The notes beneath the pieces are model-generated. The model saw only the letters and a list, made by a program, of their open reading frames with translations. It was not told the origin of the DNA and made no database searches. From a bacterium (GTDB taxonomy: Bacteria; Patescibacteriota; Minisyncoccia; UBA6257; GWB1-50-10): 64,000 bases of DNA. Location of the stretch: contig JAJYXV010000015.1 of assembly GCA_021801565.1 (NCBI GenBank), positions 23,839 to 87,838 of the forward strand. Direction: 5' to 3'. The translations under genes were made by a program, and so were the position numbers. Positions 30,108 through 64,000 of this stretch are shown one piece after another. Position 1 is the first letter of the stretch, and every line of letters starts with the position of its first letter.

Positions 30108-31523
30108 TCATTTCATTACTATCTGTTTTATTCCCGATGCTTTAATAATTTCGTTAAATTCTTCCTGTTCAATCGTTTCGTTTTCCATAAGTTTCCGTGC
30201 GATAATATCAAGTGTGTCTTTATTTGTAGTGATAATTTTCTTTGCTGTTTCAAGTGACTTTTTCATAATCACATTCATTTCGGAATCAATCATCTCTCCC
30301 GTTTTTTCCGAATAATCTTTTTCCGAAGAAATCTCGCGTCCCAAAAACATAAGTTCATGATTTTTTCCGAGTGTCCGTGGACCAATCACATCGCTCATTC
30401 CATATCGCGTAATTGCTTTATGTGCAAGATCGGTTGCATATTGAATATCGCTCGATGACCCAGTGCTTACATCCTTAAATATAATTGACTCTGCGGCATA
30501 TCCACCAAATGATACCGCGAGATCGGCAAGAAATTGCGCCTTTGTTTTCAATCGTCGTTCTTCGATCGGAAGTTTTAATGTATATCCTCCCGCCATCCCA
30601 CGGCTAATAATCGTCACTTTGTGTACCGGATCACTATCTTTCAGTGTTGCCGCAACAAGTGCGTGTCCCGCTTCGTGATACGCAGTGATTTCTCTTTCTT
30701 TTTGAATCGTCACGCGCGAACGTCGTGCGGGACCAAGTAATACTTTTTCAATTGAATTTAATATGTCGTCCTGCGTCACCTTCTTTCTTCCTGCGCGCGC
30801 AGTTACAATTGCCGCTTCATTTAAAAGGTTTGCAAGATCTGCGCCAGAAAAACCCGGCGTACGAGTTGCCACTACCTTCAAATTCACTGATTCATCAAAT
30901 GGTTTTCCCTTTGCATGAATCTTCAAAATATCCTCACGATCGTGAAGATCGGGCATATCAAGGAGAACGCGCCGATCAAAGCGTCCCGGACGAAGGAGTG
31001 CCTGGTCCAAAATATCGGGACGATTGGTTGCTGCCATCACAATTACATTGGTATCTCGTTCAAATCCATCCATTTCTACAAGTATCTGGTTCAGCGTCTG
31101 TTCGCGCTCGTCGTGTCCGCCCCCAAGTCCCGCTCCGCGTTCACGTCCCACCGCGTCTATTTCGTCGATAAAAATGATTGAAGGAGCTGCCTTTTTTGCG
31201 GTTTGAAATAAATCGCGGACACGTGATGCGCCAACCCCCACAAACATTTCAACAAATTCCGATGCCGAAAGATGAAAGAAGGGGACATTGCTTTCTCCTG
31301 CAACTGCACGAGCGAGAAGTGTTTTTCCGGTTCCCGGAGGACCCATTAAGAGGACTCCGCGAGGAATTTTTGCACCAATATCCAAAAACTTTTTCGGATT
31401 TTTCAAAAAATCCACCACCTCCTCCAACTCTTCTTTTGATTCTTTCAAACCCGCGACATCTTTAAATGTAATTTTGTCTTTATCTTGAGAAAAAAGACAA
31501 ATATTTATTTTTCCAAATGACAT
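30108..31523 (-). CDS. ftsH: ATP-dependent zinc metalloprotease FtsH, AAA+ and protease domains
   Basis: AMSFGK...[14 protein letters not shown] Walker A, DEIDAVG Walker B and the HEAGHA zinc motif. Confidence 0.85.
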
Positions 31524-31550
31524 TGCTTGAATTGCTCAACCCTTCGCCTG

Positions 31551-31973
31551 TCAAAAAATAAACCAAAATAAAAAAATCATAAAAAATATTGGGAGAAGCG
31601 TAGGAATTAAAATACCCATCCAATATTTAAATCCGCTCGGATCCTCGACGGTAATATTTACCTTTCTTAGTTTCTCCTTATCAACACCATAATTTGAAAG
31701 TGTTTCTACAATACCGCTCTCGCTTTCTTTTTTTGAGAGCGCGAGAGAATCATCGGTGAGCGTAATCTTTAAATCGTTTCCGCTAATTACGATGTTTTTT
31801 ACTCCATCGGTGTTTACCTTATCTGCAAGTTCGCTCATATTCATAGTCTTCGGTGGTGTTCCTTCCATTTCAAAAAGAAATGAAAAAATAACCGTGACAA
31901 ATAAGAGAAGTGTAATCGCAAAAATAAGATTTTTACTTAAATTTTTCATATGTTTTCCACTATCATAACGCAT
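31551..31973 (-). CDS. ftsH: FtsH N-terminal membrane/periplasmic domain (same frame as 30108..31523, separated by two TGA codons)
   Basis: TM1, a periplasmic domain and TM2 (WMGILIPTLLPIFFMIFLFWFIF). The frame continues [13 protein letters not shown]. Confidence 0.6.
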   Translation of the reverse strand: MRYDSGKHMKNLSKNLIFAITLLLFVTVIFSFLFEMEGTPPKTMNMSELADKVNTDGVKNIVISGNDLKITLTDDSLALSKKESESGIVETLSNYGVDKEKLRKVNITVEDPSGFKYWMGILIPTLLPIFFMIFLFWFIF

Positions 31974-37327: not shown

Positions 37328-38639
37328 GAATATTTCAAAACCACAATTTATTATTTTCGCAGTGATTGCTGTGGTTATTCTTGTAATTACCCTTATGGTT
37401 TCCTGTGTTATTCCTGGAATGCAACGATGTGCAAACCCAGGACTCCAAATTGAGGGTACGCTTGATTTTTGGGGAATAGGAGATGACCAAAGTGCATATG
37501 AACCAATTATTACCAACTTCAAAAAACTTTATCCAAAAGTGGAAATAAAATATCGCGGATTCAATACACAAACCGAATATGACCATGCGCTTCTTGAATC
37601 AATGGCACAAGGAAAGGGTCCCGATATATTTATGGTGTTAAATAGTGCTGTTCCAAACAATACGGGAAAAATGTTGCCAATGCCCCAAACACTTATTCCA
37701 TTTGCTCAACTCCAATCCCTTTTTCCAAAGGTAGTGGAACAGGATTTCTTTCCACAACAAACCATATACGGACTTCCACTTTCTATTGATACGCTTGCGC
37801 TTATTTACAATAGAAATTTTATTGATCAAGCCGCGATACAAATACCAAAAACATGGGAGGAATTTCAGGATGTGGTAAAAAAACTTACGATTGTTGACCG
37901 ATCAAAAAAAATTATTCGGGCGGGAGCAGCAATTGGGGGGTCAGCAAAAAATATTTCTACCGCGCCAGATATATTAAGCCTCCTTATGCTTCAAACTGGA
38001 ACAAAAATGATTTCGGATGATTTTCAATCGGCAACATTTGCATCTCCCGAAGGGAAGGACGCGCTCCGTTTTTATACCCAATTCTCAAATGGGACAAGTG
38101 ATACATATACATGGAACGAAACAATGCCGAATGATCTCGACGCATTTGGACAAGAAAATGTTGCAATGATTTTTAATTATGCAAGCGCTCTCCCAGAAAT
38201 ACAAAAACGTAATGCGTTCATCGATTATAAAATTGCACCAATACCACAACCCGCATCGGCAGAAAATCATTCAATTTCGTATCCAAAATACTGGGGGTAT
38301 GCTGTATCGCGACAAAGCAAGACTCCCGATGTTGCTTGGCAATTTGTTCTCTTTATGACCACCGATGAACCCTCGGTAAGGTCTTATCTTACAAAAACAA
38401 AAAAATCTCCAGCACTCGACAATCTTATCCGAAGCGAATATATAAACAATCCGGAACTCGGAGTATTTGCGAGACAAGCGCTTATTGCCCGTTCATGGCC
38501 ACAAATTAATAACATTGCAGTCAATACTATTTTTTCCGACATGATTGAATCTGTTGTTACCAATCAAAGCACTGTTGAATCGGCAATTAATAGGGCACAG
38601 GAAGAGGTGTCACAACTCATGGGCCAGCGGGCATTTTAG
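37326..38639 (+). CDS. ABC transporter extracellular solute-binding protein (sugar family)
   Basis: Signal/TM anchor followed by an SBP_bac_1-like fold (KVEIKYRGFNTQTEYDHALLESMAQGKGPDIFMV). Confidence 0.75.
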   Translation: MNISKPQFIIFAVIAVVILVITLMVSCVIPGMQRCANPGLQIEGTLDFWGIGDDQSAYEPIITNFKKLYPKVEIKYRGFNTQTEYDHALLESMAQGKGPDIFMVLNSAVPNNTGKMLPMPQTLIPFAQLQSLFPKVVEQDFFPQQTIYGLPLSIDTLALIYNRNFIDQAAIQIPKTWEEFQDVVKKLTIVDRSKKIIRAGAAIGGSAKNISTAPDILSLLMLQTGTKMISDDFQSATFASPEGKDALRFYTQFSNGTSDTYTWNETMPNDLDAFGQENVAMIFNYASALPEIQKRNAFIDYKIAPIPQPASAENHSISYPKYWGYAVSRQSKTPDVAWQFVLFMTTDEPSVRSYLTKTKKSPALDNLIRSEYINNPELGVFARQALIARSWPQINNIAVNTIFSDMIESVVTNQSTVESAINRAQEEVSQLMGQRAF

Positions 38640-38716
38640 AAAAAAATTATAAAATAATTAGTTTTTAAGATTAAAAATTTATCTAAGAGGACACACTCAT
38701 GTCTTTTCTAGATGAA

Positions 38717-38752
38717 TTTAATATTGTGGAGATAAATAAAAAGTAGTATATA
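38717..38752 (+). promoter_or_regulatory. sigma70-like promoter TTGTGG-N17-TATATAAT immediately upstream of pilin-like gene
   Basis: ttgtggagataaataaaaagtagtatataat. The ATG lies about 9 nt downstream, so the leader is very short. Confidence 0.45.
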
Positions 38753-38760
38753 ATAAAAAA

Positions 38761-39567
38761 ATGAGGAAGATAGCCTTTCTTGGTATTTTAATCATCATAA
38801 TAAGTATCTCTCTCCCATATATCGCTTCTGCGAGAACGTTATTTTACATTTGGGAAGGGACAACGTGCACACCGGGAACAGAGGGCCCGACAGAACCTTG
38901 TGGACTTTGTGATGCGCTTGTTGTCGGACGGAACATCATTGAAGACATGTTTAAGGTTGCATTTATACTTGCAACTGTTTTTATTGCCTATGGCGGATTC
39001 AGACTTATGACCGCGGGGGGGAATGAAAAAAGCGTGAGCAGCGCAAAGGAAATTATCGAAAGCGCTCTCATCGGCCTCTTTATCGCGCTCGTAGCTTGGC
39101 TTTTAATCAATACCATTCTCACGACACTTGCCAATGGGAGTGCAAGTGCTCCGTGGAACAACATTGAATGTGGAAGCGGATCTACTTCTGGTCCGCGGGA
39201 AACAATAGGAGGGGGTGGATTTGGAACAAGTACATATACTGGTGGGGGTGGACAGTTCGGTGGGGCTGGTGCAAACGGAAGTTGGACAAATAACAATGCA
39301 AACAATGGATCAACGCAAACACAAATAGATCAAGTTATTAACTCTTCATGCGCACAACAAGCAAGTACGTGCATCGATGAAAATAAAAAAGGATCAAGCG
39401 AAAATCCACAATTGAATATCACGCTTGAGGCCGCATACACGATTTCCTGTACAAAAATTGGCACTGGGTACAATGCGAGCGTGCAATTTAAATGTCTCAC
39501 CCCTGTTATTTCTCCATGGAGAAAATGTGCCGATGGACTCCCAGACCTCACAAAAATCTGTAAATAA
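38761..39567 (+). CDS. TrbC/VirB2-like pilin domain protein with Gly-rich and Cys-rich C-terminal extension
   Basis: Signal peptide, then the pilin core AFILATVFIAYGGFRLMTAGGNEKSVSSAKEIIESALIGLFIALVAWLLINTIL, then GGGGFGTSTYTGGGGQFGG and a 10-Cys tail. Confidence 0.65.
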   Translation: MRKIAFLGILIIIISISLPYIASARTLFYIWEGTTCTPGTEGPTEPCGLCDALVVGRNIIEDMFKVAFILATVFIAYGGFRLMTAGGNEKSVSSAKEIIESALIGLFIALVAWLLINTILTTLANGSASAPWNNIECGSGSTSGPRETIGGGGFGTSTYTGGGGQFGGAGANGSWTNNNANNGSTQTQIDQVINSSCAQQASTCIDENKKGSSENPQLNITLEAAYTISCTKIGTGYNASVQFKCLTPVISPWRKCADGLPDLTKICK

Positions 39568-39610
39568 ATGTTTATTCTTACAAAATATGTTTTCGTGTTA
39601 AAATAATATT

Positions 39611-39949
39611 ATGGAAAAAATAAAAAATGTTTCGGTCCTGTTTTTCTCTTCTTTGTTATTTTTCGGTGCAAAAATCTCCCACGCAGCAACGATTGGCCTT
39701 CAAAATCCATTGAAGGTAAGTTCAATTCCTGATCTTATTTACGCAGTCATTGATTGGTTTGTAATTGCCGTCGGTCCCGCAATTGCCGTTGTTATGATTA
39801 TTTACGGCGGGTTTCAAATACTTACCGCCGGAGGAGATCCGAAAAAATTTGAGACAGGAAAACAAATAATCCTTTATGCGGTGGTTGGGTATGGTATAAT
39901 TCTTCTTGCAGAAGGAGTGGTGTTAATTATTCAAAAACTTCTTCAGTAA
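39611..39949 (+). CDS. TrbC/VirB2-like pilin paralogue
   Basis: Signal peptide plus VIAVGPAIAVVMIIYGGFQILTAGGDPKKFETGKQIILYAVVGYGIILLAEGVVLII. Confidence 0.7.
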   Translation: MEKIKNVSVLFFSSLLFFGAKISHAATIGLQNPLKVSSIPDLIYAVIDWFVIAVGPAIAVVMIIYGGFQILTAGGDPKKFETGKQIILYAVVGYGIILLAEGVVLIIQKLLQ

Positions 39950-40005
39950 GAGATAAGAAAGGTCGATTTTTTATCTAAAACAGTCGTAAAAATTATTTAT
40001 TTATT

Positions 40006-40359
40006 ATGAAATCAATCTTAAAAAAGTGGGGGTTAGTCTCAGCTCTTTCATTGGTTCTTTTGGCTCCAGTTGCGTCAGCCCAATTCGATGTCCCCGGCGA
40101 ACAATTGCCGGCGCCTCGGTTCCAAACATATGGCGGTGCGATACAATTGGTGGAAAAGGCGTCAAGTTGGCTTCTTTATATTGTTATTGCGCTTGCGGTT
40201 ATCTTTATTGTATACGCCGGATTTTTATATCTTACCTCGGGTGGAGATGAGGATAAAACAAAAGCGGCAAAGAACTATATTGTGTATGCAGTGATTGGTA
40301 TCGCAATTGCACTTCTTGCGCGCGGCATTGTACTTCTCGTAAAGAATTTCGTCGGATAA
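40006..40359 (+). CDS. TrbC/VirB2-like pilin paralogue
   Basis: WLLYIVIALAVIFIVYAGFLYLTSGGDEDKTKAAKNYIVYAVIGIAIALLARGIVLLV. Confidence 0.7.
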   Translation: MKSILKKWGLVSALSLVLLAPVASAQFDVPGEQLPAPRFQTYGGAIQLVEKASSWLLYIVIALAVIFIVYAGFLYLTSGGDEDKTKAAKNYIVYAVIGIAIALLARGIVLLVKNFVG

Positions 40360-40365
40360 TACGGT

Positions 40366-40731
40366 TTGTATTCCATGAAAAAAACTACTTGGACAATTCT
40401 TTCATTATTTCTTGCCTCAATTCCAGTGCTTATACACGGACAAACCCCGTCATTATTGGATGCTCCACCCGGATCTATAGTAACAAACAACGGTGCTGAG
40501 GGCGCAATGACACTTCTCCGAAAGGCTGGTGGGTGGTTATACAGCGGCGTAATAGCAATATCGGTAATACTTATGATTTATGGGGGTTTTCTTTATGTAA
40601 CCTCTGGGGGAGATGAAGATAAGGTAAAGAATGGAAAAAATTACATCATTTACGGGGTTGTTGGTATTGCTGTCGCAACACTTGCCACTGGAGTTGTATT
40701 CGTTGTAGGAGAATTCTTGGGGGCAAAATAA
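40366..40731 (+). CDS. TrbC/VirB2-like pilin paralogue
   Basis: WLYSGVIAISVILMIYGGFLYVTSGGDEDKVKNGKNYIIYGVVGIAVATLATGVVFVV. Confidence 0.7.
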   Translation: MYSMKKTTWTILSLFLASIPVLIHGQTPSLLDAPPGSIVTNNGAEGAMTLLRKAGGWLYSGVIAISVILMIYGGFLYVTSGGDEDKVKNGKNYIIYGVVGIAVATLATGVVFVVGEFLGAK

Positions 40732-40740
40732 GAAATTCCT

Positions 40741-41070
40741 ATGAAAAAATATTTTTACGCCATTATCGCTCTTGTATTTCCCTTTTTTGTTCATGCACAA
40801 ACACGACAACCAAAAACAAGTATTACAACGCCGGAAAAGGTAATTGAACTTATCAATAAGTTTGGTGGATGGTTTTATAGTGCACTCTTAGCACTTGCGG
40901 TCATCTTCATTATTTATGCCGCATTTAGATTTTTGACTGCTAGTGGAGATGAAAAAAAAGTAGAAGAGGCAAAACAACAATTAATCTACGCCATTATCGC
41001 TCTTGCGGTTGCAATGCTTGCGACGGGGATTGTTACAGTGATGAAACAATTTCTTGGTGTAACCAATTAA
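40741..41070 (+). CDS. TrbC/VirB2-like pilin paralogue
   Basis: WFYSALLALAVIFIIYAAFRFLTASGDEKKVEEAKQQLIYAIIALAVAMLATGIVTVM. Confidence 0.7.
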   Translation: MKKYFYAIIALVFPFFVHAQTRQPKTSITTPEKVIELINKFGGWFYSALLALAVIFIIYAAFRFLTASGDEKKVEEAKQQLIYAIIALAVAMLATGIVTVMKQFLGVTN

Positions 41071-41090
41071 CACTTGAGATATATAAAAAC

Positions 41091-41126
41091 AAAAATCTCC
41101 GCAGAAAACGGAGATTTTTGTTTTTA
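41091..41126 (+). terminator. Rho-independent terminator after pilin array
   Basis: aaaaatctccgcagaaaacggagatttttgtttttat. Confidence 0.8.
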
Positions 41127-41160
41127 TAAAATACCCATGTTATTATCACAAAATAAGATT

Positions 41161-41277
41161 GCCGAGGTGGTCTCGCCGCCGTTCGGGCGGGATAAACTCT
41201 GTTGGCTAATCATGCCCTCGTGGCGGAACTGATATACCCCGCTCGAAACACTTCGTGTTCATACAGGACAAGCGCGC
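41161..41277. other. GC-rich structured segment beginning GCCGAGGTGG (tRNA-Leu 5'-end-like); possible ncRNA or tRNA remnant
   Basis: Contains hairpins CCGCC-gttcg-GGCGG and GAAACAC-ttc-GTGTTC. No complete cloverleaf was found by eye. Confidence 0.25.
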
Positions 41278-41296
41278 AAAATTTAAAACTAAAAAA

Positions 41297-41383
41297 GCTG
41301 AGGTGGCGAAATTGGCAGACGCGCAAGGCTTAGGACCTTGTGAGGGCAACCTCTTGGGAGTTCAAGTCTCCCCCTCAGCACCA
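41297..41383 (+). tRNA. tRNA-Leu (anticodon TAG), CCA-encoded
   Basis: GCTGAGG...CAAGG CTTAGGA CCTTG with a long variable arm (GAGGGCAACCTCTT), the T-arm GGGAGTTCAAGTCTCCC and an encoded CCTCAGCACCA end. Confidence 0.9.
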
Positions 41384-41539
41384 AACAACAAAGTTCATGG
41401 TTCAAAATTTACTCCACATACGAAGGTTGTGCGGGGCCTCTCGAGCCTGCCCGCCGGTGGGTGGGGGCACTATGAAATTCCATCTTTGGTGAAATTCTTT
41501 CTCTAATCCCCACACCCTAACCCCTAATTATCTAACCAT

Positions 41540-42448
41540 CTATTTCTTCTTCCTTCTTATCCCGTGAAATGCTTCATGTACCTCTCGAAGCTCTTTATTT
41601 GTGAGGTGTGTGTAGATTTGTGTTGTTGAAACATTCGCGTGACCTAAAAGTGACTGCACCGAACGAAGATCTGCACCATTAATAAGAAGGTCTGTTGCAA
41701 AACTATGACGTAATTGATGCGGGTGTACTTTCTTCGGAATCCCTGCCGCACGCGCATATCGATCAATAAGGCGCTCCACCGAGCGTGGGGTTATTCTTCC
41801 CAGCGTCTTTCCGGATTTACTTAAACCTACAAATAAAAATTCTTCTGGATCTGTTCTCTTTTTTAAATATTCTTTAATCGCTTTTTTTGCTCCATCAGAA
41901 AGAAATACGATGCGTAACTTGTCCCCCTTTCCTCGCACAGAAATTTCTCCTCGTTCAAGATCAATATACCGCGGGAGGGTGCACAATTCGGAAAGACGAA
42001 GTCCGGTTGAAAAAAACGTTTCAAGTATTGCGCGATCACGAACCGAACGGAGATCGTCTCCTTTTGGAGATTTCAGTAGTCGCTCGAGCTCTCCATAATC
42101 AAGCACTTCAATATCGCGTCGTGAAACTCTTGGAAGTTCGATTGCATCGGGAGAGAGAATATTATATCCGCGTTTTATCAGATATTTCAAAAAATTCCTG
42201 ATTGCAATCACATAATAACTCTGTGTATTCCTTTTTATGTTCTTGCGCGCAAGCATTACACGAAACGATCTCACACGCTCTTCTGTAATATCTTTAATTG
42301 AGTTGGTTTTTGTGTAATCAAAAAATAATTTGAGATATCGTTCATAGTTTTCCCTCGTTTTTGACGAACGATTTTTTTCTATTTCCAAATAATCTAAATA
42401 TTCCCGAAAGTGGCGCTCTATATCATTCATACCCCTTTTTACCAACAT
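41540..42448 (-). CDS. xerC: XerC/XerD-type tyrosine site-specific recombinase
   Basis: N-terminal SAM-like domain (IERHFREYLDYLEIEKNRSSKTRENYERYL). The catalytic R...HxxR...Y motifs are HQLRHSFATDLL and GHANVSTTQIYTH. Confidence 0.8.
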   Translation of the reverse strand: MLVKRGMNDIERHFREYLDYLEIEKNRSSKTRENYERYLKLFFDYTKTNSIKDITEERVRSFRVMLARKNIKRNTQSYYVIAIRNFLKYLIKRGYNILSPDAIELPRVSRRDIEVLDYGELERLLKSPKGDDLRSVRDRAILETFFSTGLRLSELCTLPRYIDLERGEISVRGKGDKLRIVFLSDGAKKAIKEYLKKRTDPEEFLFVGLSKSGKTLGRITPRSVERLIDRYARAAGIPKKVHPHQLRHSFATDLLINGADLRSVQSLLGHANVSTTQIYTHLTNKELREVHEAFHGIRRKKK

Positions 42449-42540
42449 ATTGTATCACTCCTGTCGCAAAATATTAACTTCATATATAAATATTTACATG
42501 GAATTGACCACTCTCCTTTTTTGCGGTACAATCCGTTTGT

Positions 42541-42807
42541 ATGCTTTCAAAACAAAAAAAACAGGCAGCGACACGGGATTATAGGCGCCATGAAAAAGAT
42601 ACTGGATCTGCAGAATACCAAGTCGCTCTCTTAACCCGCCAAATAAAGGCGCTCACTGACCACTTGAAAAAGCATTCGAAAGATCACCACTCTCGGAGAG
42701 GATTGCTTATGATGGTGGGAAAGCGAAGGAGATTTCTCCAATTTCTCCAGAAGAGCGACGAGAAAAAGTATAATAGTCTCGTCAAAAAATTAAAACTTGA
42801 GGCTTAA
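42541..42807 (+). CDS. rpsO: 30S ribosomal protein S15
   Basis: TGSAEYQVALLTRQIKALTDHLKKHSKDHHSRRGLLMMVGKRRRFLQFL. Confidence 0.9.
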   Translation: MLSKQKKQAATRDYRRHEKDTGSAEYQVALLTRQIKALTDHLKKHSKDHHSRRGLLMMVGKRRRFLQFLQKSDEKKYNSLVKKLKLEA

Positions 42808-50090: not shown

Positions 50091-50660
50091 ATGAAAGAGA
50101 AGATTCGAGTTGGGTCATTTTCTCTCGCGGTATTACGAACCCTTTCTGAAACTACAAACGGGATTTTATTTGGACAACTTACTAGAGATAAAAGGGGTAG
50201 GAGCGACAACACGCGTGGATCAATGCGTTCTTCAAAAGATGGTGGGAAACATCACAATGCTCTCAAAGACGCTTCTGAAAAAAACCTGCGAGTAACGCTC
50301 TGGCGGCTTGAACAAAAGGGGTTGGTTGAAAAAAAAGAAAATAAATATTTTCTTTCTCTGCTTGGGAAAAAGTTTTTTACAAACCAAGAACAACCGAAAC
50401 AATGGGATGGAAGGTGGCGACTTATTACATTTGATATTCCCGAAACAAAACGAGGGTCGCGTATCTGGCTCCGTACAAATCTCATTCATGAAGGATATGA
50501 CACAGTACAAAAGAGTGTGTTTCTTGGAAAAAATCCGATTCCACACCGCATGATTGAAGAGATGAAAGAACGAGACATATTATCGTGTGTGCGACTCATG
50601 GTAATCGGGGAAATAGATGACGATTCATTGCTCTCCGAATATGAAAAACGACACAAATAA
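50091..50660 (+). CDS. PaaX-family-like transcriptional regulator (wHTH + PaaX_C-like domain)
   Basis: N-terminal winged helix, then WDGRWRLITFDIPETKRGSRIWLRTNLIHEGYDTVQKSVFLG. Confidence 0.5.
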   Translation: MKEKIRVGSFSLAVLRTLSETTNGILFGQLTRDKRGRSDNTRGSMRSSKDGGKHHNALKDASEKNLRVTLWRLEQKGLVEKKENKYFLSLLGKKFFTNQEQPKQWDGRWRLITFDIPETKRGSRIWLRTNLIHEGYDTVQKSVFLGKNPIPHRMIEEMKERDILSCVRLMVIGEIDDDSLLSEYEKRHK

Positions 50661-51615: not shown

Positions 51616-52233
51616 ATGAAAATAAAATATATGTTTTCTAAACAAATAAAAAAAGGGCGAAACATACCAAAAAGACGCATGTGCCGACACCGGCAGGCGG
51701 AAGCATATATATTCTCTACTATTAATGGGGGGAGAAAATATATTGCTATATTCGTTCTTTTCCTCGTTATGTTTGCCTCTTTGGGCGATAAAACGTTTGC
51801 CGCCATATCTCCAATAAGCCCGTTTGGAGGAAAGGTGATTTCGTGGCTTCCTTCGGCGCCAGGATGTCTTGCTTTTACCACAGCCGTATCTCTCGCAACA
51901 CTCGGTACAATCAATCCGAGTGTTGAAGAATTGGTGGTGGGACCTCCCAATGGCGGAACGTTCGGTATTCTTCGTGTTAATCTTATTCCTGTTCCTCCAA
52001 CAACGATTCATATATATCAACAATATCAACTCCCAGAAACGTACGTACTTGGCTCTTCGGTAAATATTTGTGATGCGTGTAAGGCCGTCGACAAACTTCC
52101 GTTTCTCAAAAATGTGTGCAACACGGGCATCTTAAAAGATATACTTGGAACAGTATGTAGTTTTATTGGCGGCGCATGTCCGATAACAAACCTTGTTTTG
52201 AAGATGGGAACAGCAATAAAACCATCACCGTAG
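51616..52233 (+). CDS. hypothetical secreted/membrane-anchored Cys-containing protein
   Basis: 205-aa ORF with a hydrophobic anchor and 8 Cys in its C-terminal half. It is the first gene of the T4SS-like block. Confidence 0.45.
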   Translation: MKIKYMFSKQIKKGRNIPKRRMCRHRQAEAYIFSTINGGRKYIAIFVLFLVMFASLGDKTFAAISPISPFGGKVISWLPSAPGCLAFTTAVSLATLGTINPSVEELVVGPPNGGTFGILRVNLIPVPPTTIHIYQQYQLPETYVLGSSVNICDACKAVDKLPFLKNVCNTGILKDILGTVCSFIGGACPITNLVLKMGTAIKPSP

Positions 52234-53052: not shown

Positions 53053-54546
53053 ATGGTGCATTATATAAAAAATATTGTTGTCCTCTTCTTTATTGTGGTG
53101 TTTTTATATGCTCCATTTTCTGCGTACGGGCAATCTACTTCAACAACCGCCACTTCAACACAAACACTTTCAAGTAAGGGAGAGGTGCAAGGAATGGAAA
53201 TGTGTATCAAGGCGGCGCGTCTTTCTGCAAAATATGGTGGATTTACGGCGCTTGATCGTGTACAAACAAATATCACAAACAGCGTGAAAAATTATCTAAG
53301 TATGCAATTTAATAGCGCAACGGGTCTTAATATTGATTTTTCGAATCTCGGATCAAGCATTATTAATCAAGGGCTAGGGATGTTAAATGACGTATTTGGA
53401 AACGTCCTGAAAGATGAAGTAGGAAAACAAGTGGATACACTAAAGAAAAAAGCACAAGATGAATTGGAAAGAATAGCAAAAGAAGCGCTTGGAAACGTAG
53501 TCAAAGATGCGACAAACGCGTTAAATCCGCTTTCTCCAGTACCCACCGCAGAACAAGGGGACTTGCTTGATGAAGCAAGAAAACAAAACGAAAAAACAAA
53601 TCAAATGATCGCCGAACAGAAACGCGCTCAACTTATTGCGGATACGCGGGATAAATGCCAAGAACTTTTAAAAACCACCACAGAGACAATAAAGCGATCT
53701 CTTTTGTATCAACTCTCAAACCAAATTACACAATGGATTGTAAACGATGAAAAACCGCAATTTGTAAAAGACCCCGGGCAATTTTTAGCGGATACTGCGC
53801 AACTTGCAGTTGATCGAACGATCTCCAGAATTGCTCCTCGCCTTTGCACTCCATTCCAGCTTTCCATCACTGCACAAATTCCAACCGCAAACCGACAGGC
53901 AAATCCGTTCTACGAAGAGCTAACCTGCACGCTCGACCAAGTAACAGGAAATATTGAGGCGTTCTATAACGACTTCAGAAACGGCGGGTGGATCGCATAT
54001 CAAGAAATGTGGAAACCGCAAAATAATTATTATGGCGCATCAATGATGGTTCAAGAAGAACTTGCACAACAACAAGCGGCTGCCACACAACTCGCGCAAG
54101 AAGACTTACAAAGAGGAAGTGGTTTTCCCAGTCAAACACAATGTGTTGAGTGGCAACTTTATGTACCAACGGATTGTAATTTAAACGATTTGCAAAAACG
54201 GATGTCTGATGTTCTTCAAGTTGGGGGGCAATGTTTTGTTGCGGTGGATGGAGAAATACACGGACCCACGGATGACGGGAAAGAGCCACCACTTAGCACC
54301 GCAACCACACAGGCACCCGAAGGATCATATTGGCAGTGTCAGAGAAGTGAAATCACGAATCCAGGAACCATCACCGCACGTCTGGGAGAAAAAGCACAAC
54401 AAATGGAAGTAAATCAACTTGAAACAACAGGCGATATAGAAAATTTCCTTGATACGATTGGCGATGCAATTGTAAACAAACTCGTAAAGTCTGGTATTGG
54501 GGGCCTCCGCGGATTATTACAGGGGCTTCCTCCGCTAAATCCCTAA
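53053..54546 (+). CDS. hypothetical secreted protein (Gln-rich)
   Basis: 497-aa ORF with a signal peptide and a coiled-coil/Q-rich sequence. Confidence 0.5.
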   Translation: MVHYIKNIVVLFFIVVFLYAPFSAYGQSTSTTATSTQTLSSKGEVQGMEMCIKAARLSAKYGGFTALDRVQTNITNSVKNYLSMQFNSATGLNIDFSNLGSSIINQGLGMLNDVFGNVLKDEVGKQVDTLKKKAQDELERIAKEALGNVVKDATNALNPLSPVPTAEQGDLLDEARKQNEKTNQMIAEQKRAQLIADTRDKCQELLKTTTETIKRSLLYQLSNQITQWIVNDEKPQFVKDPGQFLADTAQLAVDRTISRIAPRLCTPFQLSITAQIPTANRQANPFYEELTCTLDQVTGNIEAFYNDFRNGGWIAYQEMWKPQNNYYGASMMVQEELAQQQAAATQLAQEDLQRGSGFPSQTQCVEWQLYVPTDCNLNDLQKRMSDVLQVGGQCFVAVDGEIHGPTDDGKEPPLSTATTQAPEGSYWQCQRSEITNPGTITARLGEKAQQMEVNQLETTGDIENFLDTIGDAIVNKLVKSGIGGLRGLLQGLPPLNP

Positions 54547-54549
54547 TCA

Positions 54550-56931
54550 ATGTTTAAAAAATATAAAAAAATACTTATTTTTGTGTTGTTGTTTATAACC
54601 ATTTTTATTTCTGGATCTGTTTTTCTTACACAAAAAGCAAATGCAATAGCAGGATATCCAGATTTTATGATGAACCCCTATAATCCAGTTACACAAAAAA
54701 TAGGAGAGGTGGCAACAGATATAATAACATGGCCACTAAGAGAGGCGTTTAAGGGACTTATGTATGTTTTAGCACTTATTGCGGGGCTTTTATTTTGGAT
54801 AGGGGCGCAGCTCATTGGATTTTTTATGTCGCTCAATATGGCAATTTTCGACATGCCTCTCGTTGAGGTGGGGTGGAAAATTGTCCGCGATGTTGCAAAC
54901 TTGGGATTTGTTCTTGCAATTATCATTATTGCAGTTGCTACCATTGTGCGATACGAAGAGTATGGAACAAAAAAACTTCTCCCAAAGCTTATCGCGGCCG
55001 CAATTTTAGTAAATTTCAGTTTAACCATTGGCGCTGTGTTTATTGATTTTTCAAACACACTTACAAATTTCTTTATCTCTAAGTCTTCAAAAAATGGTGA
55101 TGTTATTGGTATGACCACAGAACTTGCGAGAGGTTTTGATACACAGCAATTTTTAAGAACACACACAAGCGGCAACCAATTTATACAAGGGGGGGCAGCA
55201 CCAATATATGAAACATTTGCATCAATTTTAAGTTTATCTATGGCCGCATTATTTACATTTATTTCCGCGGTGAGTTTGTTGGGAATCGCAATTATGCTTC
55301 TCGTGCGTTTTATGTATCTCTCCGTGCTTCTTCTTGTTTCTCCGATTATTTATCTCTTTTGGGTCATACCCGATACAGCATCGGTGTGGAAAAGTTGGTG
55401 GAGAAAGTTTTTGGAATGGGTATTTAATGCTCCAATTCTTACTTCGTTTCTTTATCTTACCGTCATATCAACTACCGCGCTTGGAAAATTTGCTGATAAA
55501 TATGCGGTCAGTGCTGGTTCAAAAATTAATGACAGTTTATCGCTCACCCCTCAAATTCTTATTGTTATAGGAAACTCACTTATTATGACTGGGCTTCTCG
55601 TTGGAGCGCTTTTGGTGGCAAACAGTTTGGGTATTACCGGCGCAACCACCGCATATAGTCTCGCGTCAAAAGCCGGAAAAACAACAAAGAAGTGGGCACT
55701 TGATAAGAGCAAGGGCGCGGCGAAAAAGGCTGGGAGAAGCGCGCTCACGGCAGGAACAAAGACAGATGATCAAGGAAACACAACGACCGCGCTCGAACGA
55801 TTTGGCGGAAAGTATGGAAAGATTCCTCTTATCGGCAGGGCAATTACGGGGATTTCTGGTGCCTCATCCTCTGCAAGGGCAACAAGTGGCAAGGGAGTAG
55901 AGGAAAGAATGAAGGGACTTGAAAACAGGACGGGCGACGACTTGGTGGCGCTCGCGAGCAGAAAGGGTCTTTCATCGGAGGAGCTTGCAGCCACTGGTAT
56001 TGCCGCCGCGAAGAAAGGAAAATGGAATGATCTAAGTGAAGAAACACGAAAGAGCGTGGTGGATGCGGCACGAAAAACAAAGACGGGAGATAAACTTGCT
56101 GAACAAGCCCCGTGGCTCGCAAAAGAACTGGGAGAAGACGAAGTAAAGATAGCCGCAAAAATGAACGAAGTTCCAAAGAGTGCAATTTATGAAAAGAAAG
56201 ATGGTGATGGAAACGTCATTAAAGACGCAAGCGGCAAACCAATAAAGGAGGTGAATCCAAATTACGAGAAGTTTGTACAGGATAACGCAATGAATTTCCC
56301 GGCTCAATTTAAAGAAGAAATTGGAAAACTTCCAAAGGACACCGGAGAGGCGGTGCGCGAGGCATTTACAGCTGGTCTTAAAGATAAGGTGAGAGAAAAA
56401 ATAGAGGTTGAGGTTTATAATGCGGCGACAAAAACATTCGAAAAAGAAAAAGGATATGAAGCGGTTGAAAAGGCAAATAAGATTATAGACGACACAAAGG
56501 GTCCGTTGAAAATAATAGAAACGGCTATAGAAGATTTGAGAGATAAGGTTGATAAACCACAACTTGTTGCACTCCAAAAACAAAAAACAAAACTTGGTGA
56601 CGAGGAAACAAAACTTAATAACGAGTTGAATGGTCTACGAAGCGATCCATTACTAAACGCTGGTAAGATCAAGGAAACAGAGAAAAAAATAGCAACAATC
56701 AAGAAAGAAATTGTGTCTGTCGAAAAAGAGTTTACAAATCTTAATGATATACAGACAGAATTTGATAACAAAAAGGCCGAGCGAAAAGCAATAATTGATG
56801 TGGTATCTACTCAAGAAGAGAAATTAAAAAAGATGAAAGATAGTATTGGAAGGGAAAACGCTCGTATAGTGAGCAAACTTGACGATATTACAAAAGATGT
56901 TTCGTTCAAAAAAAACCAAAAAACACCCTAA
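54550..56931 (+). CDS. VirB6/TrbL-like polytopic membrane protein with long C-terminal coiled-coil/charged extension
   Basis: About 7 TM helices in the first ~380 aa, then a Lys/Glu-rich coiled coil. Its position lies upstream of the VirB3/VirB4 homologues. Confidence 0.5.
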   Translation: MFKKYKKILIFVLLFITIFISGSVFLTQKANAIAGYPDFMMNPYNPVTQKIGEVATDIITWPLREAFKGLMYVLALIAGLLFWIGAQLIGFFMSLNMAIFDMPLVEVGWKIVRDVANLGFVLAIIIIAVATIVRYEEYGTKKLLPKLIAAAILVNFSLTIGAVFIDFSNTLTNFFISKSSKNGDVIGMTTELARGFDTQQFLRTHTSGNQFIQGGAAPIYETFASILSLSMAALFTFISAVSLLGIAIMLLVRFMYLSVLLLVSPIIYLFWVIPDTASVWKSWWRKFLEWVFNAPILTSFLYLTVISTTALGKFADKYAVSAGSKINDSLSLTPQILIVIGNSLIMTGLLVGALLVANSLGITGATTAYSLASKAGKTTKKWALDKSKGAAKKAGRSALTAGTKTDDQGNTTTALERFGGKYGKIPLIGRAITGISGASSSARATSGKGVEERMKGLENRTGDDLVALASRKGLSSEELAATGIAAAKKGKWNDLSEETRKSVVDAARKTKTGDKLAEQAPWLAKELGEDEVKIAAKMNEVPKSAIYEKKDGDGNVIKDASGKPIKEVNPNYEKFVQDNAMNFPAQFKEEIGKLPKDTGEAVREAFTAGLKDKVREKIEVEVYNAATKTFEKEKGYEAVEKANKIIDDTKGPLKIIETAIEDLRDKVDKPQLVALQKQKTKLGDEETKLNNELNGLRSDPLLNAGKIKETEKKIATIKKEIVSVEKEFTNLNDIQTEFDNKKAERKAIIDVVSTQEEKLKKMKDSIGRENARIVSKLDDITKDVSFKKNQKTP

Positions 56932-58622: not shown

Positions 58623-59111
58623 ATGGCTACTTTTCAGGTTCCGCAATTTATTGATCAAAAACCAAAAATAGTAGGGCCGCTCACGCTCACACAGTTTTTT
58701 TATATTGCAATTGCGGCGGGTATTGTATTCGCTTCTTTTTATATATTTAATCTTTTTGTTTGGATACTTGTAAGTATTGTTTTTGTTACAATCGGTGTTG
58801 GGCTCGCATTCATAAAAATAAATGGACGGGAGATGCCAAAAGTAATACGCGACGGGCTTTATTTCTTTTTAAAACCGCGAATTTATACGTGGCAAAGGAT
58901 TACAGAAGAACCGCTTTACGAAGAGGAGAAAATAGAAAATACAAGAAAAACAATGGGTGCGAGAGAAAAATTAAATTCAATCGTACTAAACGTCACCACA
59001 GGAAAATTGTTTTCACCAAAACAAATGAGAAGCGAACAAAAAAAAGAAGAGTATCAAGTGGCCACATTCGAGACCGGAGAAAGAAGAAAAATAAAAAGAG
59101 TGGACTATTAA
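58623..59111 (+). CDS. PrgI/VirB3-like T4SS membrane protein
   Basis: MATFQVPQFIDQKPKIVGPLTLTQFFYIA followed by 2 TM helices, as in the PrgI family. Confidence 0.55.
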   Translation: MATFQVPQFIDQKPKIVGPLTLTQFFYIAIAAGIVFASFYIFNLFVWILVSIVFVTIGVGLAFIKINGREMPKVIRDGLYFFLKPRIYTWQRITEEPLYEEEKIENTRKTMGAREKLNSIVLNVTTGKLFSPKQMRSEQKKEEYQVATFETGERRKIKRVDY

Positions 59112-59329: not shown

Positions 59330-59980
59330 ATGTCGAACACACCAAAAAACACAACCGCACCATCCCAACAATTTGTTGAAATTACAAAGGTAGAAGATGG
59401 AGTAGTATATCTTAAAAAAGGAGGGATTCGCAAGATAATCATTGTGAGCGGAATTAATTTTGATTTAAAATCAGAAACCGAACAGAATCTTATATTAAGC
59501 AGCTTTCAAGACTTTTTAAATACGGTTGATTTTTCGGTACAATTTTTTGTTCATTCAAGGAAGGTAAATATTGATACTTACATGGAGCGAATGCGAGCGC
59601 GTCGCGAAGAAGAATCAAATGAACTTTTAAAAATACAAATAGATGAGTATATAAATTTTATAAAAACATTTATCGAACAGAATAAAATAATTTCAAAAAC
59701 ATTTTTTGTCATTGTTCCCTATGAAGCGGGGGATGCTATTGAACAAGCAAAGAAGGGGTTTCTGAGTTTTTTTGGAAAAAAACAATCACAAACCGAAGAT
59801 GTTCCAAATGCACAGGCGGCAATTGAACAGCTAAATCATCGTGTTGACCAGGTAATTTCTGGTCTTCAACAAATTGGACTTCGAGCGGTTCCTCTTGAAG
59901 ATGAAGAGCTCACCGAGCTTTTTTATAATCTCTATAATCCGCAACTTGTCGAGAAAAAAGGAATAGAGGTGCAGAAATGA
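59330..59980 (+). CDS. VirB4/TrbE N-terminal domain protein (separate ORF)
   Basis: VVYLKKGGIRKIIIVSGINFDLKSETEQNLILSSFQDFLNTVDFSVQFFVHSRK fits the VirB4 N-terminal pattern. Confidence 0.5.
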   Translation: MSNTPKNTTAPSQQFVEITKVEDGVVYLKKGGIRKIIIVSGINFDLKSETEQNLILSSFQDFLNTVDFSVQFFVHSRKVNIDTYMERMRARREEESNELLKIQIDEYINFIKTFIEQNKIISKTFFVIVPYEAGDAIEQAKKGFLSFFGKKQSQTEDVPNAQAAIEQLNHRVDQVISGLQQIGLRAVPLEDEELTELFYNLYNPQLVEKKGIEVQK

Positions 59981-60088
59981 CAAATTACTAATTTTCAATG
60001 TCGAACAAATAACAAAATTAAAAAATCAAATTTAAGATCTTTGTCATTTAGATTCTGTTGGAAATTAAGATTTTGAAATTTGGATTTA
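59981..60088 (+). repeat. ~110-bp direct repeat copy 2 (between VirB4 halves)
   Basis: caaattactaattttcaatgtcgaacaaataacaaaat...tgttggaaattaagattttgaaatttggattt. Confidence 0.75.
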
Positions 60089-60095
60089 ACAACAT

Positions 60096-61844
60096 ATGCC
60101 TCAAACAAACGAAAAATCAAACGCGCAGGATAATCTTTCAAACATCATTGCTCCCGCAGGCGTTGAAACGGGTTCAAATTATTTGAAAATAGGTGACTAC
60201 TATGCAAAAACATTTTTTGTATTCAATTATCCGCGTTTTATTTCGAGTGGATGGTTTTCTCCAATTATCAATTTGTCAGAGATGATGGATATTTCAATAT
60301 TTGCCCACCCAATGGATACCGGGCTGGCACTCAGGAATCTGAGAAAAAAAGTTGCACAGGTCGAGGCAGAAATAAATGAAAAACAAGACAAGGGAATTGT
60401 ACGCGATCCAATGCTCGAAACAGCATATGAAGACATTGAAAATTTGAGAGACTCGCTTCAACAAGCGAGAGAAAAACTTTTTCAGGTCGCGATCTACATT
60501 ACGATTTACGGAGAGGATTTAAAAAATCTTTCGAGGCTTGAAAATACACTCGAATCGCTTTTAGACAGTAAGTTGGTATATATAAAACCGGCGCTTTTCA
60601 GACAAATTGAAGGATTTAATTCCGTGCTTCCGATTGGAAAAGATGAACTCGCAGTAAATACCCCCCTTAACTCAGGTCCTTCATCCTCGCTTTTTCCATT
60701 TGTCTCTCCGGATCTTACTTCAGACAAAGGAATTCTCTTTGGGCTCAATATGCACAACAATGGTCTCATTATTTTCGACCGCTTTTCGCTTGAAAACGCA
60801 AATACGGTGGTGTTTGCAAAATCAGGATCAGGAAAGTCTTATGCATCAAAACTCGAAATACTCCGCTCTCTCATGGTGGGAACAAATGTAATTGTCATTG
60901 ATCCAGAAAACGAATACCAAAATCTCGCAAATTCAATTGGAGGAAGTTATTTTAAAATTTCACTCACCTCACAAAATCACGTAAACCCGTTTGATATTCC
61001 CGTAATTCCCGAGGGCGAGGAACCGGCCGACGTATTTAAATCTCATGTATTAAATCTGAGTGGACTCTTAAAATTGATGTTAAAAGAAATAAGCGCGGAA
61101 GAAGATGCAATTCTTGATCGCGTGATTATTGAAACGTACGCATCACGCGACATTACTGCTGAAAATTTTGGAACGATAAAAGAATTGAACCCGCCGCTTT
61201 TGGAAGATCTTCAAACTGTTTTAGAAAATACTGAGGGAGGACAAAATATGGCAAAACGACTGGAGAAATTCACTCGCGGATCATATGCCGGATTTACTAA
61301 TGCGCCGACGAATGTCGATATTAAAAATCGTCTTATTGTATTCTCTATCCGCGATCTTGAAGAAGAACTCCGTCCAATCGCAATGTATATTGTTCTAAAT
61401 TTTGTATGGAATCTTGTCCGATCTGAATTAAAACGCAGACTTCTTGTTGTTGATGAAGCGTGGTGGATGATGAAGTATAAAGACAGCGCATCGTTTTTAT
61501 TCGGTCTCGTAAAGCGTGCAAGAAAATATTACCTGGGAGTTACCACCATCACGCAAGACGTCGAAGATTTTTTGAAATCGGAATATGGAAAGCCAATTGT
61601 CACTAACTCATCAATACAATTACTCTTAAAACAGTCGCCGTCGAGTATTGGGGTGGTAACACAAGCATTTGATTTAACCGGCGGCGAACAATCATTGCTT
61701 CTTGAGGCGGGCGTGGGAGAGGGACTTTTCTTCGCTGGGCTAAAACACGTGGCGATAAAAATAATTGCCTCCTATACCGAAGATCAGATCATCACCACAA
61801 ATCCAGAACAAGTACTCCAGACCAAAGGGTTGTCATCCTTATAA
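60096..61844 (+). CDS. virB4: VirB4/TrbE/CagE-family T4SS ATPase (CagE_TrbE_VirB domain + ATPase)
   Basis: FFVFNYPRFISSGWFSPIINLSEMMDISIF, Walker A FAKSGSGKSYASK and Walker B LLVVDEAWWMM. Confidence 0.85.
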   Translation: MPQTNEKSNAQDNLSNIIAPAGVETGSNYLKIGDYYAKTFFVFNYPRFISSGWFSPIINLSEMMDISIFAHPMDTGLALRNLRKKVAQVEAEINEKQDKGIVRDPMLETAYEDIENLRDSLQQAREKLFQVAIYITIYGEDLKNLSRLENTLESLLDSKLVYIKPALFRQIEGFNSVLPIGKDELAVNTPLNSGPSSSLFPFVSPDLTSDKGILFGLNMHNNGLIIFDRFSLENANTVVFAKSGSGKSYASKLEILRSLMVGTNVIVIDPENEYQNLANSIGGSYFKISLTSQNHVNPFDIPVIPEGEEPADVFKSHVLNLSGLLKLMLKEISAEEDAILDRVIIETYASRDITAENFGTIKELNPPLLEDLQTVLENTEGGQNMAKRLEKFTRGSYAGFTNAPTNVDIKNRLIVFSIRDLEEELRPIAMYIVLNFVWNLVRSELKRRLLVVDEAWWMMKYKDSASFLFGLVKRARKYYLGVTTITQDVEDFLKSEYGKPIVTNSSIQLLLKQSPSSIGVVTQAFDLTGGEQSLLLEAGVGEGLFFAGLKHVAIKIIASYTEDQIITTNPEQVLQTKGLSSL

Positions 61845-63080: not shown

Positions 63081-64000
63081 ATGGTAAAACCAATTTTTAA
63101 AATAATATTTCTCGTTGTTTTATTTACATCACTTGCTGTTGTTGCGCGCGCAGCCGTCATAGATTACAAATTTCCTTGTTCAAATTTTGGAACAGAACTC
63201 CTTGGATACACCGATTGTGCATCTGCTGATACCTCCGCTAGTATCCCCAACTATATACGGCGTCTATATCAATTTGCGATCGGTATTTCCGGAATACTTG
63301 CTGTGGGAATGATGGTGGCGGGAGGAATACTTTATACCGTCTCCGGTGGAAGTCCCGACAAACAAAACGAAGGAAAAGATATGATTTTTTCGGCGCTCTG
63401 GGGACTTGGGCTTTTATTTGGCGCGTATATTATTTTAAACACAATAAATCCGCAACTTACTGAACTGAAAGAGCCAGACGCACCACAATTTACTGGCACC
63501 AATTACACCAATCCAGCGGAAACCGCCCTGGGGCAGCCATGGGGGTGGTGCGAGGCGTCAAAAGCAGAGTGTGCTGCTGCAATACAAAAAAGCAGTAATT
63601 CAACCTCAACGGGAATTAGTTGTTGTCTTGCGGTAAAACAAAATACTGGATTGGCCGATTGCAAAGCCGATGGATGGGGATGGGATAATAGACCAAACAT
63701 ACAAAAAAGTTGTTGCATTATTGGATCTGTTATTGGTAATTGTGCCTACGGGACAGGTGCAATGACCAATACCCAATTACAACAAAGAGAAGAACAGATA
63801 AGAGAAACGCTCAGGTTGGGTGGAATAACGGTAAATAAGACATGTTATATTCCAACCCAAGACGGTTGTACCAATGTTGGATTACTTCCTGAATCAACAA
63901 TTGATGCCCTTCTTACAATAAAAAAGAAGTGTAATTGTGACGTGATGGTAACTGGCGGTGCAGAAACCGCGGGCCATAAAACACACGGACCAGGAAAACC
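63081..64000 (+). CDS. TrbC/VirB2-like pilin domain fused to Cys-rich extracellular domain (partial, runs off window)
   Basis: ATG at 63081, a signal peptide, then FAIGISGILAVGMMVAGGILYTVSGGSPDKQNEGKDMIFSALWGLGLLFGAYIILNTI and a >15-Cys C-terminal region. No stop lies in the window. Confidence 0.6.
   Translation, partial: MVKPIFKIIFLVVLFTSLAVVARAAVIDYKFPCSNFGTELLGYTDCASADTSASIPNYIRRLYQFAIGISGILAVGMMVAGGILYTVSGGSPDKQNEGKDMIFSALWGLGLLFGAYIILNTINPQLTELKEPDAPQFTGTNYTNPAETALGQPWGWCEASKAECAAAIQKSSNSTSTGISCCLAVKQNTGLADCKADGWGWDNRPNIQKSCCIIGSVIGNCAYGTGAMTNTQLQQREEQIRETLRLGGITVNKTCYIPTQDGCTNVGLLPESTIDALLTIKKKCNCDVMVTGGAETAGHKTHGPGK

Follow-up and report, generated by a model that had tools for sequence, protein, structure and literature searches.

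Known pilin arrays and the present locus

Tandem arrays of VirB2-type pilin genes are known from Patescibacteria, where they accompany type IV secretion systems (T4SS). In 3,035 Patescibacteria genomes, screened with the PF18895, PF04956 and CONJScan profiles, Quinonero-Coronel et al. (2025) counted 441 VirB2 arrays, each of 2-11 genes, spread over 383 assemblies; within an array, identity averaged 25% and reached at most 54% (PMC12102498). In that study an array comprises at least two pilin genes with a hidden Markov model (HMM) i-Evalue below 0.001 and more than 50% profile coverage, in tandem or one gene apart, in a genome having VirB4, and virB4 is placed near dnaA, rnpA and ksgA (PMC12102498). 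Wang et al. (2023) found the pilin series in the T4SS cluster of Southlakia epibionticum to be essential for epibiotic growth (PMC10633639), and a 2025 review counted six divergent VirB2-like pilins in this species (PMC12857230). The present analysis concerns five tandem pilin genes, P1 to P5, in a 64,000-nucleotide stretch of a Patescibacterial genome (hereafter the window; assembly GCA_021801565.1, contig JAJYXV010000015.1, positions 23,839 to 87,838 of the forward strand). As Patescibacterial VirB2 arrays are already published, the locus is another member of a described array type.

Between 38761 and 41070 five adjacent open reading frames (ORFs) of 268, 112, 117, 121 (118 from the ATG) and 109 codons lie on the plus strand. 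An earlier sequence-only reading had proposed here five same-strand VirB2/TrbC-like genes, each with a signal peptide, and the present results agree with it in these points. The genes and the signals that bracket them are as follows.

38727..38754, plus strand: promoter-like site TGGAGA-16 nt-TATAAT, 10 of 12 consensus matches, presumed to be functional
38761..39567, plus strand: P1, whole gene, pilin with appended module, 268 aa, PF18895 33.3 bits
39611..39949, plus strand: P2, pilin of 112 aa with the NPL motif kept in its exposed N-terminus, PF18895 47.1 bits, orthologues 75-85% identical
40006..40359, plus strand: P3, pilin of 117 aa, PF18895 43.1 bits, TrbC 27.0 against a threshold of 27.9 bits, orthologues 74-89% identical
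40375..40731, plus strand: P4, pilin of 118 aa from the ATG with a conserved DAPPGS motif, PF18895 32.8 bits, orthologues 74-82% identical
40741..41070, plus strand: P5, pilin of 109 aa, PF18895 59.1 bits, NCBIfam NF045849 44.7 bits against a cut-off of 40
41082..41128, plus strand: intrinsic terminator-like hairpin, perfect 20-bp stem, 7-nt loop, A and T runs on either side

The P4 reading frame opens at TTG 40366 (121 aa), and the public gene calls start at the ATG (40375, 118 aa).

The family membership of the five products was analysed with curated profiles. All five exceeded the gathering threshold of PF18895 (T4SS_pilin; 26.6 bits) with 33-59 bits and E-values of 5e-8 to 4.5e-16, the matches spanning 55-69 of the 71 profile positions; five neighbouring ORFs all above this threshold is beyond chance. 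P5 additionally passed NF045849, the family of pilin-like conjugal transfer proteins of mycoplasma integrative and conjugative elements (ICEs). The threshold of the TrbC/VirB2 family PF04956 (27.9 bits) was not reached by P3 (27.0), P2 (20.0) or P5 (19.4), and P1 and P4 gave no PF04956 match in the Pfam scan. P1-P5 thus appear related to PF04956 at the superfamily level, the curated cut-off excluding membership. A sequence search of the PDB with the pilin profile returned no match. Hydropathy indicated for all five a signal segment and two transmembrane segments, with the polar loop T[AS][GS]G[DN] between the helices, and the AlphaFold2 (AF2) model of P1 placed helices at 48-84 and 89-125 with low confidence. 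The five consecutive matches together with a VirB4 correspond to the published array definition. These profile results support the identification of P1-P5 as VirB2/TrbC-type T4SS pilin paralogues. The paralogues are divergent, as had been noted by eye, and the range of 35-60% identity given then is replaced by 28-58% in local alignments; the exposed N-terminal segments are the most divergent part, and P2-P5 contain no cysteine.

The reading that we favour, with a probability of roughly 70%, is that of a chromosomal operon of five VirB2-type pilins serving the VirB4/VirB3/VirB6 T4SS that lies 13-23 kb downstream, beside the replication origin. The assignment to a T4SS is made because all five products match PF18895, helical hairpins are predicted, VirB genes occur in the window and a sixth pilin-core gene, P6, stands beside the virB4 block.

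The locus resembles the published Patescibacterial arrays (PMC12102498; SEML1_0006-0019 region, PMC10633639) in its tandem PF18895/VirB2-like genes of low within-array identity, in a monoderm-type T4SS with no recognisable relaxase nearby, and in a virB4 near dnaA, rnpA and ksgA. Unlike arrays inside a T4SS cluster, the array here stands 13-19 kb from virB3/virB4. Positional orthology, a 4-Cys subfamily and appended domains, all seen at this locus, are not described in PMC12102498 and PMC10633639, and the sole mention of cysteine in the searched text of PMC12102498 concerns VirB1. With TrbC of RP4 and VirB2 of the Ti plasmid (PF04956) the pilins share the signal peptide, the two-helix hairpin with its short polar loop, both ends on the outer side, and VirB4, VirB3 and VirB6 as handlers; they differ in the unreached TrbC threshold and in the monoderm host. 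PrgF(B2) of pCF10 and the Mbov_0395 pilin-like proteins of mycoplasma ICEs are similarly small VirB2-like hairpins of monoderm T4SS, and P5 falls within the latter family by NF045849. Those systems are conjugative and usually have one pilus-forming copy, whereas five plus one chromosomal paralogues are present here. The arrays of Bartonella and Anaplasma phagocytophilum also show tandem amplification of divergent virB2 genes; they have been read as antigenic or host-range variation, in contrast to the stable orthologue groups under purifying selection of this locus. The role proposed below for P1 (and P6), a low-abundance subunit that may present a binding domain, recalls VirB5 tip adhesins or minor pilins, but P1 resembles VirB5 neither in sequence nor in fold and retains a complete major-pilin-type core.

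The expression signals were then examined. The -10 element TATAAT (38749-38754) is perfect and ends 6 nt before the ATG of P1, and the -35 element TGGAGA matches the consensus at 4 of 6 positions. The consensus promoter with almost no leader that had been claimed earlier therefore stands for the -10 and its spacing, and only partly for the -35. The block AAATAAAAAGT..TATAATAAAAA is kept in four genomes (that of the window and the related contigs L007, L012 and L008), the ATG being at the same 6-nt distance from the conserved -10 block in three of the four. These signals are compatible with a leaderless or near-leaderless P1 transcript. A second, weaker -10-like sequence, TAAAAT with TG ahead (39577-39604, in the spacer), ends 6 nt before the ATG of P2 in the same geometry as that of P1. 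The hairpin after P5 has a folding energy (dG) of -24.3 kcal/mol with a z-score of -9.1. Since one promoter-like site and one terminator bracket the five genes, the simplest reading is that the whole array would form one transcription unit.

Positional orthology and variation of the array

The same five-gene array was found between the SBP gene and the recombinase gene in six related contigs (L007, L008, L009, L012, L014 and L015). The gyrA-SBP-[array]-xerC context is shared by at least seven related genomes, and the order and the flanks are kept even where gyrA is only 74% identical. The more distant relatives are L015 (gyrA 74% identical) and L014, the SBP being 49% identical in both. In the four closer genomes (L007, L008, L009 and L012) the orthologues are 67-89% identical (P1: 56-82%) versus 28-58% between paralogues, and the neighbouring SBP and lactamase-B genes are 72-85% and gyrA 85-93% identical. 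In L014 and L015 the positional orthologue again scores best, with one near-tie for P4 in L015. The motifs specific to each position in the N-terminal segments, NPL in P2, AQF in P3 and DAPPGS in P4, are conserved.

The pilins have a ratio of non-synonymous to synonymous substitution (dN/dS, Nei-Gojobori) of 0.05-0.17, compared with 0.08-0.09 for SBP; the values are approximate because dS is saturated. The terminator hairpin aside, the stretch from 38500 to 42600 is free of long repeats, direct or inverted, and different pilin genes have no repeat longer than 21 nt in common; the longest direct repeat, 30 nt at 83% identity, lies inside P5. Six public contigs show zero differences from the window inside the array, their flanks differing by 0-3.2 sites per kb; the identity of P1 among them is by construction, as the contigs were retrieved by an exact P1 look-up. 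From these comparisons the five paralogues appear to be ancient, ordered and non-redundant orthologue groups under purifying selection.

The first pilin and its appended domain

P1 differs from the other pilins in its cysteines and its length, and its product divides into three parts after the signal segment.

38833..39171, plus strand: mature pilin core of P1, aa 25-137, with the C36/C47/C50 segment, helix 1, the loop TAGGNEKS, helix 2 and PWNNIEC137
39172..39306, plus strand: low-complexity linker of P1, aa 138-182, Gly-rich here, pLDDT below 50
39307..39564, plus strand: C-terminal 86-aa domain of P1 with six invariant cysteines, C197, C204, C230, C245, C256 and C267

The length of 268 aa and the Gly-rich and Cys-rich C-terminal module of the sequence-only reading were borne out, while its single 10-Cys domain was not: P1 has ten cysteines in all, of which C36, C47 and C50 precede helix 1, C137 follows helix 2 and only six lie in the C-terminal 86 aa. 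A search of 5.8 billion proteins gave ten full-length P1 homologues, and their alignment revealed the invariant motifs W-x-G-T-x-C36, P-C47-G-L-C50-D-A-L and P-W-N-x-I-x-C137. A profile of the P1 core alone retrieved 68 proteins. Among its 25 top matches, 24 are 117-162 aa pilins that share the four cysteines, the last of them standing 0-2 residues short of the C-terminus (7 in a single protein), and the sources of such pilins include Jorgensenbacteria and Minisyncoccia. The next-ranked matches, about three dozen, mostly have the N-terminal cysteine pair only. Across the retrieved set (proteins P0017-P0084) the PF18895 pilins sort into cysteine classes, one with four cysteines, the last being C-terminal, and one with the two of the N-terminal pair.

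We define the 4-Cys subfamily by the motif W-x-G-x-x-C...C-x-[LF]-C-D-A-L preceding helix 1 and P-W-x-x-[IL]-x-C following helix 2. It appears to be a widespread and recognisable pilin subfamily with a typical length of about 138 aa. P1 carries these motifs and departs from the position of the last cysteine within 2 residues of the C-terminus, as 131 residues follow C137; this tail separates P1 and about 12 relatives from the 4-Cys pilins of about 138 aa. The occurrence of the N-terminal pair alone in the next-ranked matches suggests pairing of the first cysteine with the second and of the third with the fourth. In P1, C36-C47 would then probably close an N-terminal loop and C50-C137 would probably staple together the beginning of helix 1 and the end of helix 2. 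TrbC and VirB2 undergo cyclisation, a peptide bond joining head to tail. Unlike these, the P1-type pilins have a conserved cysteine at each end, and we infer that a C50-C137 bond could tie the outward-facing ends of the hairpin as a disulfide counterpart of the cyclisation.

The linker varies among the homologues from 22 to 64 aa, with 0-38% Gly and S/T/N/Q/P together making up 35-70%; the six-Cys domain keeps a length of 86-89 aa. Exhaustive phmmer of residues 179-268 against 1.84 billion cluster representatives found only P1-type pilins (P0009, P0012 and P0013), and the matches P0014-P0016 were discarded as repeat or low-complexity noise. The NCBIfam model NTTRR-F1 on this domain was likewise rejected, its 15 bits being far below the threshold of 70. 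Linker and domain are thus confined to a narrow lineage of about 12 proteins among 1.8 billion representatives. The module is absent in L012 (7944-8363, P0017) and in P0018, whose cores are 77-82% identical: the P1 orthologue stops at the conserved cysteine, giving a protein of 138-139 aa, and P2 follows after 10 nt. The more distant L013 encodes at 7287-8420 the first pilin of a four-gene array, having a 4-Cys core, an N-terminal CarboxypepD_reg domain (immunoglobulin-like; 51.6 bits against 32.3) and a short tail only after the last cysteine.

Because close relatives are without it, the module appears to be a dispensable, lineage-restricted accessory, and P1 can be described from these alignments as a 4-Cys pilin with a tethered domain added onto the normally terminal cysteine. 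The earlier suggestion of P1 as a tip or adhesin variant is plausible. The flexible linker and the disulfide-rich domain, which would point outward on a VirB2-type fibre, make a sparsely incorporated or terminal subunit that shows an accessory binding module the most likely role.

Secretion genes, competing readings and significance

The window is a part of the core chromosome of a member of Patescibacteria (candidate phyla radiation, CPR), with gyrA, SBP, tRNA-Leu, an XerC-type recombinase, NYN, pnp, comM, recA, ftsK and nusA. The identical locus is present in the NCBI metagenome-assembled genome (MAG) GCA_027423605.1 and in several ENA and Logan assemblies. The related genomes carry the label 'Patescibacteria group bacterium'; relatives of the 4-Cys pilins and of P6 are labelled Jorgensenbacteria, Paceibacterota or Parcubacteria, and one related MAG is labelled Saccharibacteria. 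The T4SS genes and the sixth pilin gene of the window are listed below.

54550..56931, plus strand: VirB6-like polytopic membrane protein (TrbL_3), 793 aa, about six transmembrane segments, PF19590 on record for the identical public gene
58623..59111, plus strand: PrgI/VirB3-like protein, PF12666 31.4 bits against 27
59330..61844, plus strand: VirB4 ATPase in two ORFs, 59330-59980 the N-terminal domain (TraC-like) and 60096-61844 the P-loop domain
63081..64000, plus strand: P6, sixth pilin-core gene with a Cys-rich C-terminal extension, running off the window, local HMM E-value 4.4e-15

The T4SS block of VirB6/TrbL_3, PrgI/VirB3 and a split VirB4 is in the same window, as had been read from the sequence, and it is separate from the array; the distance is corrected from 10 kb, as the recognisable T4SS genes begin 13.5 kb downstream, at 54550. 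The two VirB4 ORFs are 115 bp apart with stops in all frames between them, and the split is probably genuine rather than a sequencing error, since the public MAG gene calls show the identical split. Neither a relaxase nor a coupling protein turned up in the window.

P6 lies downstream of virB4 after two small secreted-protein ORFs, and the order in public contigs is T4SS genes, P6 and then jag-yidC-rnpA-dnaA-dnaN. The full-length protein (L016, 10676-11755) has 359 aa and scores 38 bits with PF18895; its extension of about 235 aa has no Pfam or PDB match. A LAS/M15-type metallopeptidase motif in P6 (GHKTHGPGKPVVD ... EHIHINF) was picked out by eye, gained no support from the Pfam and PDB searches, and is not claimed. 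Extended pilins of the P6 type, with total lengths of 227-593 aa, are frequent in Paceibacterota and Parcubacteria, so pilin cores with extra domains appear to be a recurrent theme in which only the six-Cys domain of P1 is rare.

Other genes around the block were recorded as well. Two secreted or anchored Cys-rich proteins without Pfam match (51616-52233 and 53053-54546) head the T4SS block and are possible further surface components. A PaaX-middle/Cas2-like domain protein (50091-50660) is located just before the block, between an M23/LysM peptidase gene and ksgA. Between a 421-aa ORF and prgI a small gene (58203-58577) has recorded 23S_rRNA_IVP and bAvd matches. The bAvd protein is a four-helix bundle of the kind that serves diversity-generating retroelements as accessory protein; among the window ORFs scanned with Pfam, which are a part of all its ORFs, no reverse transcriptase was found. 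The ftsH gene (30108-31973, minus strand) has two in-frame stop codons in the window and is intact (621 aa) in the public contig L001. The window and L001 differ at four sites in 20.8 kb, all of them in ftsH (31499, 31531, 31538 and 31553).

The mechanism proposed for the operon would proceed as follows. The array would be co-transcribed from the promoter whose -10 element lies 6 nt upstream of the P1 ATG, with a stop at the hairpin after P5. Sec would export each pilin, signal peptidase would cut it behind an AxA-type site, and it would remain in a membrane pool as a hairpin. From there the T4SS ATPase (VirB4) and the VirB6 platform would extract the subunits and polymerise them helically into a pilus or a short conduit that leads to the host bacterium. 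The roles of the five paralogues may be non-redundant, either within one mixed fibre or as specialised layers or assembly stages, P2-P5 being structural subunits with distinct roles and P1, probably with P6, being subunits that display accessory domains outward.

Several observations weigh against this picture or parts of it. For this organism neither a filament nor any transcript or protein has been observed. The region has no surplus of promoter-like sites (7 where 8.5 were expected), and all five pilin genes lack a visible Shine-Dalgarno sequence upstream. P1 follows the promoter-like site as the first gene, an awkward place for a minor subunit, and the array is not beside virB4, unlike in about 40% of the assemblies in the literature. 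As for P1 itself, the disulfide pairing is deduced from conservation patterns alone, the full-length AF2 model (11-sequence alignment) is poor with a pLDDT of 51 and was read for secondary structure only, and no sequence or fold relatives of the six-Cys domain were found outside the P1-type pilins.

The main live alternative, itself unlikely, is a short conduit or stalk spanning membrane and wall on VirB6, in the manner of PrgF(B2) and with no extended pilus, in which the P1 module would bind the cell's own wall or surface layer. It is in accordance with the monoderm (MPF-FATA-like) type of the T4SS, with the match of P5 to the mycoplasma ICE pilin-like family NF045849, and with the modelling of Gram-positive T4SS VirB2-like proteins as short pili on VirB6 pentamers (bioRxiv 10.64898/2025.12.18.695078); five conserved paralogues and a sixth extended pilin, however, exceed the needs of a minimal channel, and the length of the flexible tether, up to 64 aa, points to a reach past the cell surface. 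The proteins are short and hydrophobic, hence weak matches to many unrelated membrane families, and could on that ground be ordinary small membrane proteins with no link to type IV secretion; this is effectively refuted by five of five scores above the curated PF18895 threshold, by TrbC matches near threshold and by the further family member beside virB4.

Two other alternatives concern variation within the array. Interchangeable pilins, alternately expressed or fast-diversifying for antigenic or phage escape or for host-strain matching, are improbable, more so than the stalk. The variable-pilin idea was put forward for such arrays as speculation (PMC12102498), with the analogous Bartonella and Anaplasma VirB2 arrays read in this way, and the sequence-only reading had likewise taken the diversity as a mark of antigenically variable or switched pilins. 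The low identity between paralogues, their most variable parts being the exposed N-terminal segments, and the second -10-like site before P2 would suit it. That view is unsupported because the positional orthologues are stable over deep divergence, selection is purifying with dN/dS not above that of neighbouring genes, and repeats able to drive gene conversion or inversion are absent; a single promoter-like site and terminator serve the array, which is invariant in the six contigs despite their differing flanks (P1 by construction), and the exposed NPL and DAPPGS motifs are themselves conserved. The marks of variable pilin loci such as Neisseria pilE/pilS or Bartonella/Anaplasma virB2, namely a non-synonymous excess, copy shuffling and recombination repeats, were not found here. 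Far less probable still is control of the array through DNA inversion by the tyrosine recombinase at 41540-42448 (minus strand), in the style of Rci and the shufflon of PilV. A Phage_integrase/XerC-like gene does stand directly downstream of the array in every related genome, but it has the standard XerC/D domain pair and housekeeping neighbours, and its simplest reading is the chromosomal Xer; inverted repeats, the terminator hairpin excepted, neither flank nor lie inside the pilin genes, and gene order and orientation are identical in all retrieved contigs. For lack of repeats, both shufflon and gene-conversion mechanisms were rejected.

Patescibacteria depend on host bacteria, and a T4SS with its pilin array is essential in the one species tested. 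The operon of VirB2-type pilins favoured here leaves the overall picture of this system unchanged. What is new at the locus is the positional conservation of the paralogues, the 4-Cys pilin subfamily and the pilin cores that anchor appended domains (P1, P6 and the first pilin of L013). The stable, ordered and individually conserved paralogues argue for division of labour over variation. A more specific and doubtful proposal is that in this Paceibacteria-like lineage the fibre is an obligate heteropolymer of the five fixed pilins, in which the disulfide staple of P1 replaces cyclisation and the freed C-terminus displays the six-Cys domain on its flexible tether for host recognition; if this is true, gain, loss or swap of the module (absent in L012 and replaced by the N-terminal immunoglobulin-like domain in L013) would set the host range. 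The appended domains of P1, P6 and the first L013 pilin are the obvious candidate determinants of host contact, and the locus offers direct targets in the form of a subunit to tag, a domain to express and cysteines to mutate.

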